Of a stretch of 64,000 bases of DNA, positions 6,030 to 60,996 are shown one piece after another. How positions within the stretch are numbered: the first letter of the stretch is position 1; every line of letters starts with the position of its first letter. The stretch is from positions 89,501-153,500 of IMG/VR virus record IMGVR_UViG_3300033153_007754. One strand, written 5' to 3'. The stretch is from a virus. The notes under the pieces were generated by a model, which saw only the letters and a list, made by a program, of their open reading frames with translations, was not told where the DNA came from and searched no databases. Both the position numbers and the translations under genes were made by a program.

Positions 6030-6075
6030 TTTTCACTCCTATCTAACATAAGTCATTAATATATTTATGTTTTGT

Positions 6076-6157
6076 GTTTTTTCCATTGGTGGTTTTACCA
6101 TAGATGGGTTTTCCACCTATGGTTTTTCTATTGGTGGTTTTACCGTTTATGGTAAAA
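6076..6157. repeat. Five 15-bp-period iteron-like repeats (GGTTTTWCC-N6)
   Basis: gttttttccattggt / ggttttaccatagat / gggttttccacctat / ggtttttctattggt / ggttttaccgtttat. Confidence 0.85.
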
Positions 6158-38589: not shown

Positions 38590-39282
38590 ATGAAGATTTC
38601 AATAAAATTTAAGTTCACAATACAAATGGATGAATACTGGATAAGCAAACAATACAGAAGAGGTATCGTATCTCTTTTAAAAGATTTATTTGATTCTGCT
38701 GGAATTGATTTATTTAAAACAAACCAGAGAAAGCCGTATACGTTTTCAGTCAAATTCCCTAAATTCGATAAAACAACCAAAACCAATTTCATAACTAGTG
38801 AAAATTGGTTTTGGGTAAACTTTTCAGCTTATGATGATGCAATAGCAAAAAGTATAAAGTCTGAAATATATAAGATTAAATTTTTATCTGCCTTTGGTAA
38901 AGAAATATATGTAGATAAAGTAACTATTAAAGAACAAGATATAATTACAAAAAATGTTATTTTATTTAAAACATTTTCTCCTATTTTAGTAAAGGATGAA
39001 AATGGTAAAAGATTTTTAAATGATTTTAATAAAGATGTTTTTAAACAAAGGTTAATTACCAATATTAAAAATGGATATGAACAATTCACCACCGAAAAAG
39101 CAGGAAGGGTTGATGTATCTTTTAAAAAAGGTAATATGACTGTTGCTGAAACTTATGGTGGTGAAATAGGTTATAAAGGAATCATTAAACTTTTTGCACA
39201 TTCTGATGTTTTACAATTTGTTTATGAAAGTGGAATTGGAAATAAAACAGGCCAAGGCTACGGAATGTTGGAGATATTATGA
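38590..39282 (+). CDS. cas6: CRISPR-associated endoribonuclease Cas6
   Basis: KPYTFSV, FKTFSPILV and C-terminal G-loop GIGNKTGQGYGM. Confidence 0.9.
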   Translation: MKISIKFKFTIQMDEYWISKQYRRGIVSLLKDLFDSAGIDLFKTNQRKPYTFSVKFPKFDKTTKTNFITSENWFWVNFSAYDDAIAKSIKSEIYKIKFLSAFGKEIYVDKVTIKEQDIITKNVILFKTFSPILVKDENGKRFLNDFNKDVFKQRLITNIKNGYEQFTTEKAGRVDVSFKKGNMTVAETYGGEIGYKGIIKLFAHSDVLQFVYESGIGNKTGQGYGMLEIL

Positions 39283-39911
39283 AAACTATTAAATTTATAT
39301 CAAAACATCTAACCAAACTGGATTCTGATGTTAGTGGTAAATGTGCTATTTGTGGGGAAGAACATATTGGTTTCAAACTAAAAAAAGTTCTTTCAGCGAA
39401 TTTTAATGATTGGAAATACATCAAAGATGGTAGTACAAAACATGTTTGTGTTGATTGCCAAAGTTGCTTGGGTTCTAAAAACTTTGATGGAAAAGCATTA
39501 AGAAATTATTCTGTTATTATTACAAAAAAAGAAATTAAAAAAATTAAAAGGTCTGACATATTAGAAGTCATTAGAAATCCATTAAAAGAATTTGTTATTA
39601 TAGTTAATTTTTCTCAAAAAAAACACGCTTTTTGGGATGCAAAAATAAATAACAATAAAAGACACACATATATAGCAACAGACAAGGGAAGTTATATTTT
39701 AAATAATAAAAACTTTTTAGAACTATACAATGATTTATTTACATTGTATGAAATGAAAATAAGTAAAACTGAAATGAGGAGTGGAAAATACAATTTTATA
39801 AATTTAATGAAAAACAATAATATTTTTGATATTGATAATAAAATAAAAAAACAACGAGGTACAAACAATTTTGATTTTGCCATTTGGTTGTTACATAAGG
39901 AGGAAAAATGA
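39279..39911 (+). CDS. csf1: Type IV large subunit Csf1 (Cas8-like)
   Basis: CAICG...SANFNDW...VCVDC zinc finger, QKKHAFW; context. Confidence 0.75.
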   Translation: MKTIKFISKHLTKLDSDVSGKCAICGEEHIGFKLKKVLSANFNDWKYIKDGSTKHVCVDCQSCLGSKNFDGKALRNYSVIITKKEIKKIKRSDILEVIRNPLKEFVIIVNFSQKKHAFWDAKINNNKRHTYIATDKGSYILNNKNFLELYNDLFTLYEMKISKTEMRSGKYNFINLMKNNNIFDIDNKIKKQRGTNNFDFAIWLLHKEEK

Positions 39912-41110
39912 TTAAAGTAGATTACAATTTTACAACAACAACACCAGTTCACACAGGGGCCGACACTAATATGGGAACACTAAAGTCTTTAAGAAGACAG
40001 AAGGTTATATTAAAAAAGGCAAAGACTGAAAAAACAAAATACAACACTGAAATGAGAAGGGAAGCATTAAGAGATATTCTTTTTGCAGTTTATAGTAAAA
40101 TTGATAAAGACCAAATTAAAGGAAAAAGATTAATGAAGATTTGGGATGAATTTCATTCCAAAGTTTTACAAGCTGCAACAGCATCAAATAAAATTCAGTT
40201 CTTAAACCGATTATCTCAACTTTGGGATATTAAATCGATTGATGACACCCTGATTTTACAACATTTGGACTATATGTCAGACAGTGAATTATTACAAACT
40301 GTGAGAGACGAAAGCATTTATCTTGTTTTATCTGTTAGAAAATTAAGAGATGACAAAAAGAATAAAGTAAAGAAGACAAAAAATAATCTATTTAGTAACA
40401 TTGAAGAAAAAAAAGAGGTTGAAATTAAAAAATATTATGACCTTGTTCCAGCAATTTCAGGGAATTCAATTAGAGGTATTTTAAGAAGAATTTCCATGAA
40501 GGATTTTGTTGATAGGGTTGGTATAACAAAACTACCAAAAGACTTGTATCATATTCTATTTACTGGTGGAGTACTAGATAGTTCAACCCAATTTGAAAAC
40601 TTAGATAGAAGAGAATCTTTTATAAAAAATAACCCACTTGTAGCCGTTTTTGGTTCTGCTATTGGAAATATGACAATTGAAGGTTTATTATCTGTTGGAT
40701 GGGCTTACCCAAAATGTTTAGAGATGGGTACAAGTGATAAATCTTACTGGACTTATCTTGATACAGTTTTTCAAACAAGAAGGGATGATTCAGAAATTCA
40801 ACACTTTTTGGAATTAGAACAAGGGCATCCTGGAACATCACAAATGAAATATGAATATGAGGTTTTTGCAACAGGAACACCTTTTACACATGCATTTAGA
40901 TTCATGGAACTTGATGATATTACAACATCAGCTTTTTGGAGGGTATTGGAGTTATTTAAAGAAAACAGTAGTATTGGTGGAATGAAAGCAATTGGTAACT
41001 CATATATAGATTTATCAGAAATCAAAATACCAAAAAATGCAAGTAAATTATATTTGGATTATTTAGAAAAAAATAAAAAAACAATAAAAGATTTTTTCGG
41101 GAACTTATAA
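39908..41110 (+). CDS. csf2: Type IV backbone Csf2 (Cas7) with an internal Cas11-like helical insertion
   Basis: TTTTPVHTG, VPAISGNSIRGILRR, LFTGG, NPLVAVFG, IGGMKAIG G-loop; about 105-aa helical insert at roughly aa 47-150. Confidence 0.85.
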   Translation: MIKVDYNFTTTTPVHTGADTNMGTLKSLRRQKVILKKAKTEKTKYNTEMRREALRDILFAVYSKIDKDQIKGKRLMKIWDEFHSKVLQAATASNKIQFLNRLSQLWDIKSIDDTLILQHLDYMSDSELLQTVRDESIYLVLSVRKLRDDKKNKVKKTKNNLFSNIEEKKEVEIKKYYDLVPAISGNSIRGILRRISMKDFVDRVGITKLPKDLYHILFTGGVLDSSTQFENLDRRESFIKNNPLVAVFGSAIGNMTIEGLLSVGWAYPKCLEMGTSDKSYWTYLDTVFQTRRDDSEIQHFLELEQGHPGTSQMKYEYEVFATGTPFTHAFRFMELDDITTSAFWRVLELFKENSSIGGMKAIGNSYIDLSEIKIPKNASKLYLDYLEKNKKTIKDFFGNL

Positions 41111-41838
41111 TGTTTTATTCAGAAAAACAACTTAATTATAAAATAGATGGTGCAATTAAAACAATTAATACAGCATTGGAACAAGTAGCAAATCCATACA
41201 TTGCTTGTAGTTGGGGAAAAGATAGCATTGTGATGTTATGGTTAATAAGAAAAATTGACAAGAATATCCCAGTTGTTTACATGAATTCTAATTACTCATT
41301 TCCAGATAATTATGAATTCAGAGATAGGATGTTAAAAGAATGGAATATAAAACATTATATTGAACTTCCACCCGTTTCTGATTATAAAGAAATAGTTGAA
41401 ACTTTTGGTTTACCTGGTATTTCCAGAAAATCACAAGACCAAGAAAAAGTTGTTTCTAAATTAAAAAAACAATTAAGACCTGAAATTAAAGAATTTGATT
41501 CAGTGTTTTTAGGTATAAGAGCATCTGAAAGTAGGGCAAGACAAAATATGATAAGATATTCAGGTAAAATAAACACCCTAAAAAATGGAATTACAAAAAT
41601 AATGCCAATTGCAGACTGGACTTTCAAAGAAATGTGGCAAATTGTAAAGGAAAATAATATACCAATGAATACCATATATTCAAAAGATAAATTTTCATCA
41701 CCTGAATGGATAAGAAATTCAGGAATACTATCAACTGATGGGGCTTCGTCTGGAAAAATACAATGGATTAAATATTATTATCCAGCAATTTACAGAAAGT
41801 TATCAGTTGATTATCCGGAGGTAAAAGGGTATGTATAA
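41110..41838 (+). CDS. CysH/PAPS-reductase-like protein (type IV-B accessory)
   Basis: ACSWGKDS PP-loop, FLGIRASESRAR, MPIADWT, IPMNTIY. Confidence 0.85.
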   Translation: MFYSEKQLNYKIDGAIKTINTALEQVANPYIACSWGKDSIVMLWLIRKIDKNIPVVYMNSNYSFPDNYEFRDRMLKEWNIKHYIELPPVSDYKEIVETFGLPGISRKSQDQEKVVSKLKKQLRPEIKEFDSVFLGIRASESRARQNMIRYSGKINTLKNGITKIMPIADWTFKEMWQIVKENNIPMNTIYSKDKFSSPEWIRNSGILSTDGASSGKIQWIKYYYPAIYRKLSVDYPEVKGYV

Positions 41839-42466
41839 GATAACATTTAAAATGGTTTCACCTGTTGTTTTAATGGATAATGTCACCTTTGATTCAATAC
41901 TTGCATATTGTGTATATAGTCATTATAGAAAAATTACTGATATTAAAACATCTGGTGGAAAAGAAATTGATGAAAGCAAACAAGACATACCAGTAACAAA
42001 ACATAAGGATGGTTTTTATCTTGCCAGTTGGGATATTACAACAGAAGAACACGAAAGTGTTGAAAGATGGCGGAAAAGATGGGATAACACAAATGATAGA
42101 CTTGCTGATTTTAAAAAAGCAAAAAGAAAAATAGACACTGCACGAGGTAAATATAAATCATATGATATGCCAATTGTAGTAAAAAGCATTGATGAAATAA
42201 GTTTTTATTTTAAATCAAAGGAGGTGGGAAAAGTAAGTTTTTTCATAAATAACTACCTTGTTGGGATTGGTAAGAAAGTTAAAATGGGGTATGGATGGTT
42301 TTCTGGGTTTGAAATAGAAAAAGTAAAAGATAGTGATGTTTTATATTATAGACCAACACCCAAAAACTTTAAATCACCACTTAAAACGATTGATGGTTTT
42401 GGTGGAATTAAACCACCATATTGGCACAATCAACAAGACATAAAAATTCCATCACTACATTTCTAA
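41831..42466 (+). CDS. csf3: Type IV Csf3 (Cas5)
   Basis: MVSPVV...FDSILAY, GKYKSYDMP, GIGKKVKMGYGW G-loop, RPTP, KPPYW. Confidence 0.85.
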   Translation: MYKITFKMVSPVVLMDNVTFDSILAYCVYSHYRKITDIKTSGGKEIDESKQDIPVTKHKDGFYLASWDITTEEHESVERWRKRWDNTNDRLADFKKAKRKIDTARGKYKSYDMPIVVKSIDEISFYFKSKEVGKVSFFINNYLVGIGKKVKMGYGWFSGFEIEKVKDSDVLYYRPTPKNFKSPLKTIDGFGGIKPPYWHNQQDIKIPSLHF

Positions 42467-43523: not shown

Positions 43524-43675
43524 ACTGGTACTTATGTAGAATGGAATAAATTTAAACTTTTCATTATATATATCCATTATTCATTCTCCACTTTAATCAA
43601 GACAGGTTTTTGTCGTAATCTTAATGGTGTATCTGCTAACATATAAACACCATTCCATTCTACATAAGTACCAGT
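43524..43675. repeat. Perfect 24-bp inverted repeat (one arm intergenic, one arm coding)
   Basis: actggtacttatgtagaatggaat at 43524-43547 is the reverse complement of 43652-43675. Confidence 0.9.
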
Positions 43676-49122: not shown

Positions 49123-49782
49123 CTATTTTTTTTCGTCACCATTTTCATACCAATATGTGTAATCCCCTTGACGGCAACCATTTACGTAATTAGATTCACA
49201 TCGTTTCTTTCCATCCATGTAATATTCTATATATTTACCATGTTCTTTTCCATTTACATAATCACGTTCCCTTTCTTTATTACCATCTTCATCCCACCAA
49301 GTTACTTTACCACATATTTTACCATTCACATAATTAACAAACCTTCGTTTCTTACCGTTTTCATGCCACCAAATTTCTTTACCATGTTTTTTACCATTTT
49401 TATGATTTATTTCAAATTCTTTTTTATGATTTTCATAGTATTCTATTTTTAAACCATGTTTAAGACCATCTTTATAGTTTATTTCCCATGCCTTATCACC
49501 ATTATCATACCAAAAAACCTCTTTACCATCTTTTTCCCCATCCTTAAAATCTATTTCCCATTGTTTATCTCCATATTCACTGTAATAAACCTCTTTACCA
49601 TCTTTTTTTCCATCTTTGTAGTTTTCTTCTGATATTACTTTACCATCTTCCCCGTAATAAATCTCTTTACCATGTTTTTTTCCATCTTTATAATTAATTT
49701 CAATTTTTTTATTGCCATTACTATAATTATCAACATAAACACCTGTATATGGTACATTATTTTTAAGATACATCTGCATCAC
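49123..49782 (-). CDS. MORN-variant repeat protein (YwqK-like)
   Basis: About eight 24-aa units EINYKDGKKHGKEIxWxENGxK; 72-bp periodicity in the DNA. Confidence 0.8.
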   Translation of the reverse strand: MMQMYLKNNVPYTGVYVDNYSNGNKKIEINYKDGKKHGKEIYYGEDGKVISEENYKDGKKDGKEVYYSEYGDKQWEIDFKDGEKDGKEVFWYDNGDKAWEINYKDGLKHGLKIEYYENHKKEFEINHKNGKKHGKEIWWHENGKKRRFVNYVNGKICGKVTWWDEDGNKERERDYVNGKEHGKYIEYYMDGKKRCESNYVNGCRQGDYTYWYENGDEKK

Positions 49783-60862: not shown

Positions 60863-60921
60863 TTATTCCACCTAAAAAAATTACATTATTATATCATTAT
60901 CCATATAATTTATAAAATAGT

Positions 60922-60996
60922 ATATTCTCCATTGATGGTTTTACCGTGGGTGGTTTTTCCACCTATGGTAAAACCATTTACAGAAAACCTACCAAC
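60922..60996. repeat. 15-bp iteron-like repeats with dyad symmetry
   Basis: ggttttaccgtgggt / ggtttttccacctat / ggtaaaaccatttac plus degenerate flanking units. Confidence 0.85.

Follow-up and report, generated by a model that had tools for sequence, protein, structure and literature searches.

Gene content and genome context of the locus

The DNA analyzed here (the window) is a stretch of 64,000 nucleotides that makes up the final 64 kb of a complete 153.5-kb virus genome. The genome has direct terminal repeats and a G+C content of 23-30%. Five overlapping genes on the plus strand of the window form one operon, in the order cas6-csf1-csf2-cysH-csf3. The first gene, cas6 (38590-39282), encodes a protein of 230 aa that matches TIGR01877 above the cut-off (E 3.6e-23) and PADLOC Cas6b with E 2.6e-33. 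It is followed by csf1 (39279-39911), which encodes a Cas8-like large subunit of 210 aa with CxxC pairs (PADLOC Csf1_0_IV, E 8.3e-33; TIGR03114, E 5e-14, below the cut-off). The third gene, referred to below as csf2::cas11, is a single ORF of 400 aa (39908-41110, including the stop codon) with a match to PADLOC Csf2_0_IV at E 1.5e-43. The cysH-like gene (41110-41838) is the signature accessory gene of type IV-B and encodes a PAPS-reductase-fold protein of 242 aa (PF01507, E 8.9e-26, above the cut-off), and the operon closes with csf3 (41831-42466), a Cas5 of 211 aa (PADLOC Csf3_0_IV, E 9.9e-31; TIGR03116, E 4.4e-18, below the cut-off). No CRISPR array was found in the window, in the 153.5-kb genome or up to 4.5 kb from the operon, nor in the flanks of about 50 related loci, and searches for Cas1 (PF01867) and a DinG-type helicase (PF13307) gave no match in the whole 153.5-kb genome.

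The csf1, csf2 and csf3 core together with the cysH-like gene are the genes by which subtype IV-B is recognized. The locus fits the definition of IV-B except in two points: Cas11 is not a separate small protein but residues 47-153 of Csf2, and a clear Cas6, which is not expected in IV-B, heads the operon. This Cas6 (38590-39282) is I-B-like according to PADLOC, in a phage genome that itself lacks an array. Among the approximately 50 related loci the window is the only one with a clear Cas6, with a weak candidate at locus L033; Pinilla-Redondo et al. recorded Cas6 in just 12 IV-B loci (PMC7038947). The presence of a Cas6 in the array-less window copy hints at the processing and loading of a defined RNA.

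Several repeats lie elsewhere in the window. A perfect 24-nt inverted repeat (43524-43547 and 43652-43675), with arms 104 nt apart, is located about 1 kb downstream of the cas operon. At 49234-49740, within a gene on the minus strand, there are at least 5 tandem units of 72 nt that are 64-72% identical; these resemble 24-residue protein repeats and not a CRISPR array, and similar pairs of 72 nt are found elsewhere in the genome. Repeats of 15 nt of the GGTTTT(W)CC type form two clusters 55 kb apart, at 6075-6152 and 60921-60968.

Csf2 is interrupted at a single hairpin

Two HMMs were used in this analysis, one representing the inserts only and the other the Csf2 core only. The N-terminal piece of the csf2 product, residues 1-46 (39908-40045, plus strand), comprises strand beta1, a small hairpin and the first long strand (residues 30-43). 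It matches positions 1-46 of the core HMM with E 2e-12 and is predicted with pLDDT values of 80-96; the same HMM positions also match the start of short Csf2 proteins. The C-terminal part, residues 171-400 (40418-41107, plus strand), contains the second long strand, the SGNSIRG helix and the remainder of the RRM core. It matches core HMM positions 32-273 with E 3.9e-102 and includes the invariant residues P181, N186 and R193, and residues 175-396 match positions 42-310 of PADLOC Csf2_0_IV. The motifs that the initial annotation had quoted for Csf2 are all present, namely the N-terminal strand YNFTTTTPVHTG, RRQKV and, at residues 180-190, VPAISGNSIRG.

An AlphaFold2 model of the whole protein, made from a 40-sequence alignment, has a pLDDT of 86.1 and a pTM of 0.79. 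This model superimposes on type IV-A Csf2 with Z 18.6 over 244 residues (model residues 2..400) and on the IV-B Csf2 chain 7jhy_a with Z 17.0 over 218 of 228 residues (model residues 2..397, chain residues 18..288). Since the model aligns as Csf2 throughout except in the insert, the Cas7 fold draws on residues 1-45 as well as on all of the sequence beyond about residue 171. A profile alignment to the Csf2 of 7JHY likewise pairs chain residues 18-55 with the sequence before the insert and residues 60-157 with the sequence after it. The initial annotation had proposed an alignment to canonical Csf2 as a check of the insert, and in this alignment about 135 residues are cleanly inserted, all at one hairpin. 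In short Csf2 proteins the LRREK strand is followed after about 10 residues by PxxSGNSxRG, whereas the fused proteins have about 135 additional residues at the same point. In a library clustered at 50% identity, the matches of 400-500 aa align over their full length, and those of 260-300 aa pair residues 175-180 of the query with their own residue 40-45. The predicted structure places the insertion at the tip of the hairpin that lies between strand beta1 and the SGNSIRG helix.

The whole protein remains below the curated cut-offs for its family, with 29.8 bits against 130 for TIGR03115 and 20.2 against 22.1 for the Pfam RAMPs entry, which we attribute both to divergence and to the interruption by the insert. 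The best PDB sequence match of the Cas7 core is the Cas7c of IV-C, with E 2e-17.

The insert is related to type IV Cas11

The interval in which the initial annotation had placed a Cas11-like small subunit (40046-40357, plus strand) consists of 104 stop-free codons, which correspond to residues 47-150 of the 400-aa Csf2 ORF at 39908-41110. Its helical character is borne out by the AlphaFold2 model, in which residues 47-153 are all-helical and lie between the long strands of residues 30-43 and 171-181. The nested domain as delimited here from the Cas11 profiles, the model and the match to 7jhy_g, the type IV-B Cas11 (chain g) of 7JHY, has six helices and spans residues 47-153 (40046-40366, plus strand). 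The description of the domain as flanked by Lys-rich linkers holds in part: a flexible return linker is predicted at residues 154-170 (40367-40417, plus strand; pLDDT 52-54, below 50 at residues 155-164), but on the N-terminal side the supposed linker is a predicted beta-strand, so that the flexible stretch is confined to about residues 154-170. The richness in Lys is peculiar to this AT-rich phage; the median K+R content of linkers in the family is 14%.

Both sequence profiles and the predicted fold back the identification of the insert as a type IV-B Cas11, for which a profile and structure search had been suggested. When excised, the insert matches PADLOC PDLC01695 with E 3.1e-11 over positions 2-103 of the 122 in the profile, and PDLC01694 with E 3e-7; the excised insert gave nothing in Pfam or NCBIfam. 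The insert is conserved over 99-100% coverage, at 37-56% identity, in more than 120 clusters. AlphaFold2 modelling of the domain alone, with 34 nested and free relatives, gave a pLDDT of 86.2. Compared with the PDB by Foldseek, the domain model matches 7jhy_g with TM 0.66/0.60 and an E-value of 0.22. With VIA-align the same chain is matched with Z 12.3 and an rmsd of 2.3 Å over 111 residues, and the next best match has Z 4.3. The value of 12.3 is slightly below about 13, the level to which the tool attaches a warning that helical bundles may match by common arrangement, but the wide gap to the next match, the full-length coverage and the independent profile matches make the assignment to Cas11 safe. 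A PDB sequence search with the Cas11 alignment produced a single weak match, to Cas11c (E 0.004). Nested and free Cas11 sequences align end to end and have in common a conserved helix motif, L..R.E..Y....R. The nested domain and the free Cas11 of locus L015, the top-scoring free Cas11 for the insert HMM, both fall in the Cas11_1_IV profile family.

Nested and free Cas11 are mutually exclusive

Both HMMs were run against every open frame in the window, in the whole genome and in a set of 44 IMG/VR loci, one Logan contig and five MAG loci. The statement in the initial annotation that no standalone cas11 is present proves true of the entire 153.5-kb genome, in which both Cas11 profiles and the insert HMM match only csf2. 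The same holds for 18 fused loci (the window, L001, L003-L013 and L047-L051, the csf2 of L051 being cut off at the start of its contig), where the insert HMM matches only within csf2 and csf1 adjoins csf2. At 28 loci with a short csf2 (L014-L030 and L034-L044), a free ORF of 105-199 aa lies directly upstream of csf2 and matches the insert HMM with E values between 3e-22 and 4e-4, most of them below 1e-10. PADLOC calls Cas11 for two free ORFs that were scanned. At these split loci csf1, cas11 and csf2 come in that order, and csf3 and cysH follow, with either of the two first. Homologues with the insert had been proposed as a test, with the expectation that they lack cas11; they do, and homologues without the insert have cas11 immediately upstream. 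Over about 50 loci, nested Cas11 and free cas11 are mutually exclusive. All fused loci have lost the free gene, which is an argument for a continuing need for Cas11 in these array-less systems.

A search for natural intermediates, that is, genes split at the domain borders, found none. One of the two apparent candidates, P0136 (L052:2559-3771), is a fused csf2::cas11 copy whose Cas11 domain is interrupted midway by a frameshift, and is either a pseudogene or a sequencing error. The other, P0196 (L053), sits on a contig of 1.4 kb and is not informative.

The gene content beside the core genes varies among these loci. At L001 (9884-11098) a protein of 405 aa without a PADLOC or Pfam match takes the place of the cysH-like gene after csf3, and L008 and L012 are also without cysH beside the core genes. 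A second, larger gene of the PAPS-reductase fold recurs near both fused and split loci (L005:8990-10213, L007:9732-10868, L013:9900-11036, L024:7834-9102 and L052:5050-6297). Where Pfam data exist it consists of PF01507 and DUF3440, and a ParB_N gene follows on its 3' side in the loci with Pfam annotation (the P0075 contig and L052), an arrangement that recalls IbrA/IbrB pairs.

Distribution and phylogeny of the fused proteins

A total of 268 proteins were retrieved, 179 of which have both the core and the insert. The fused proteins are 384-493 aa long. Among 150 complete ones, the Cas11 domain starts between residues 42 and 82 (median 45), and the return linker of the fused proteins measures 7-156 aa (median 22). 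Clusters of these proteins in the ESM Atlas, with 117-171 members of which 79-94% are viral, carry the label 'hypothetical'. Genes for terminase, Mu-F, ParB and methylase are found in the neighbourhoods of fused genes, and five copies are in MAGs of Bacteroidota and Desulfobacterota. A tblastn search of GenBank phages gave no match. All 51 relatives on PLSDB plasmids (from Rhodococcus, Mycobacterium and archaea) match residues 176-398 only and are therefore without the insert. The nested layout is real and common to a large, mostly phage-borne clade, and represents a variant of a known system.

A tree was constructed from the Csf2 core columns only, with 175 rows, and a second run was made on a 50-row subset. 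All of the 68 fused representatives fall on one side of one branch, which has an SH-aLRT support of 91 (83 in the 50-row subset). Three 'short' rows inside the fused group begin only at about residue 150-170 of the query; one of them is the frameshifted P0136, and the remaining two look as if their gene calls had been cut short at the N-terminus.

In a second, small and divergent group, formed by L031 (6878-8146), L032 (6482-7690) and P0268, csf2 is long and free cas11 is absent; the insert, which occupies the same hairpin as in the main group, resembles Cas11 weakly. The match of this insert to PADLOC has an E value of about 1e-3, and hhalign gives a probability of 87% with E 3.8e-6 (for L032). 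In the tree this group branches among the split forms with full support, but an AU test on the 50-row subset does not reject a tree in which every protein with the insert belongs to one clade (p 0.44), so that a second origin is possible and not established. We put forward only tentatively the idea that covalent coupling of Cas11 to Csf2 has more than one origin in phage type IV-B, with two or more of these at the same hairpin tip, in the main clade and in the group of L031, L032 and P0268. If this is true, phages would be under selection for a backbone subunit able to supply both filaments of a class 1 effector as one polypeptide, and the hairpin would stand out as the place where the small subunit naturally docks.

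A possible mode of action of the fused subunit

The 400-aa gene very probably encodes a type IV-B Csf2/Cas7 backbone subunit with a complete nested type IV Cas11, which replaces the free cas11 upstream. In the 7JHY complex there are six Csf2 subunits to five Cas11, with Cas11 located on the interface between neighbouring Csf2 subunits (Zhou et al. 2021, PMC7937560). The interface of the free Cas11 is small (505 Å2) and is shared by two Csf2 subunits, and a putative catalytic residue of Csf2, Asp42, is near the path of the target strand (PMC7937560). The IV-C effector has seven Cas7 to six Cas11 (PMC13676074). By analogy, the fused Csf2 would polymerise along RNA at 6-nt steps as in 7JHY, each subunit bringing its own Cas11 domain, and the nested domains would align as the minor ('belly') filament opposite the guide. 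Each Cas11 domain would be held by a short, rigid join on its N-terminal side and by the flexible return linker of about 20 residues. Given the small interface of the free Cas11 in 7JHY, the tether would secure full occupancy by Cas11 as well as co-assembly.

By the profile alignment to 7JHY, the insertion hairpin follows the Asp42 loop, near the target strand, which suggests that the insert is on the face where Cas11 normally lies. The relative placement of the two domains comes from one AlphaFold model with a pTM of 0.79. We infer that nested Cas11 continues to build the minor filament. A prediction of a complex of two copies of the fused Csf2, run without controls, had a score of 0.00 (mark 0.42) and bears neither way on polymerisation. 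The order of the elements also says something about how the gene could have arisen: as Cas11 follows beta1, a simple read-through of cas11 into csf2, which would put Cas11 before beta1, does not fit.

It had also been proposed that the fusion forces a 1:1 stoichiometry of Cas7 and Cas11. A filament with equal numbers (n) of Csf2 and Cas11, in place of n-1 Cas11, would contain one extra Cas11 unit and have a fixed occupancy, and to this extent the proposal stands; as a new ratio it does not, since the canonical ratios of 6:5 and 7:6 are already near 1:1. A covalently held Cas11 may be unable to make the movements that small subunits of other class 1 complexes undergo on target binding.

Other fates of the domain have to be weighed against a role in the minor filament. 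It is unlikely, in our judgement, that the Cas11-derived domain has been repurposed, covering the guide like a lid or offering a place for Csf1, the CysH-like enzyme or Cas6 to dock, and that no belly filament is formed. Such a change of role would agree with the rigidity of the N-side tether, in which strand 30-43 runs nearly straight into the helix at residue 47, and with the one Cas11 unit that a fused filament would have above the canonical complexes (PMC7937560); nor can a constraint on the domain be named from the function of type IV-B. However, the nested copies have retained the conserved residues of free Cas11, and the return linker, with its median of 22 aa, is long and flexible enough for normal docking. 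That the free gene is always gone when the nested copy is present argues that its function was replaced and not that a new one was acquired.

In some type I systems Cas11 is encoded inside cas8. A free Cas11 made from the fused gene, either by an internal translation start or by proteolysis at the linkers, could draw on the presence of Met49 at the start of the domain and on the predicted disorder of the C-side linker. We regard this as very improbable: Met49 is not conserved in the family alignment, an internal start would yield a Cas11 still joined to the C-terminal part of Csf2, cleavage would detach strand beta1 from the RRM sheet, and the sole apparent 'split' relative, P0136 of L052, owes its appearance to a mid-domain frameshift rather than to a break at the domain border. 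Hardly to be entertained, even though helical bundles often score middling in structure comparisons and the insert has no Pfam or NCBIfam match, is that the insert is an unrelated helical domain resembling Cas11 or that the ORF is an artefact of assembly or gene calling that joins two genes, since two independent Cas11 profiles match the insert, the reverse search recovers genuine free Cas11 genes, the structural match to 7jhy_g is unique and full length, the ORF is uninterrupted in at least 179 proteins from many unrelated samples, and the position of the Cas7 strand beta1 ahead of the insert is an order that a simple cas11-csf2 run-on could not yield.

Comparison with known Cas7-Cas11 systems

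Among the closest known systems is the canonical IV-B complex of Mycobacterium sp. JS623 (7JHY, PMC7937560). Its Csf2 fold (Z 17.0) and its unusual Cas11 fold (Z 12.3) both recur here, as do the genes csf1, csf2, csf3 and the cysH-like gene, and neither system has an array, adaptation genes, a helicase or a nuclease. The Cas11 of 7JHY, however, is a separate chain of 143 residues encoded by a gene upstream of csf2, whereas in the window it is a domain of Csf2; the window phage also has a Cas6. In the IV-C effector (Cas10IVc-Cas5-Cas7x7-Cas11x6; PMC13676074; PDB 11fs) there are Cas7-Cas11 pairs along the guide as well, but its Cas11 is a free protein, its large subunit is a Cas10-like HD nuclease, and IV-C systems are chromosomal and have arrays.

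Covalent joining of Cas11 to Cas7 domains is also found in the III-E Cas7-11 (gRAMP) and III-I Cas7-11i proteins (Makarova et al. 2025, PMC12669027). Those proteins consist of several Cas7 domains and one Cas11 arranged end to end in a single effector that does not polymerise, whereas here one Cas11 is nested in one Cas7 fold in a protein of 400 aa that, by homology, should still polymerise. Membership of the fused Csf2 in III-E or III-I Cas7-11 was considered and rejected, as its core is Csf2 and its Cas11 is of the type IV kind; these proteins provide the closest analogy to the nested form, and the resemblance goes no further than that.

The initial annotation did not recognise the architecture as one already described, and our literature search agrees with this. 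A Cas11 inside Csf2 was not found in the type IV surveys, the 2025 classification, the FLSHclust survey, the structure papers on 7JHY and IV-C or the Bathyarchaeia virus paper; Moya-Beltrán et al. 2021 (PMC8658065) and Pinilla-Redondo et al. supplements lay outside the scope of this search.

Implications for type IV-B systems

Type IV-B is the least understood subtype of class 1 CRISPR-Cas, and only its Csf2-Cas11 core has been seen, on random RNA. We take the system to be an RNA-guided or RNA-scaffolded tool that the phage directs against host defence or rival mobile elements. The fused proteins, which are currently annotated as 'hypothetical' or as a generic 'RAMP', add a domain architecture, Cas11 within a single Cas7 fold, that is absent from the classifications and reviews searched. 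The site of the insertion points to the face of Csf2 on which Cas11 works. With four protein genes (csf1, csf2::cas11, csf3 and cysH) instead of five, and with a fixed stoichiometry, the fused systems should be easier to express and their structures easier to solve, and the Cas6 of the window copy itself provides a handle for finding the RNA with which that copy is loaded.
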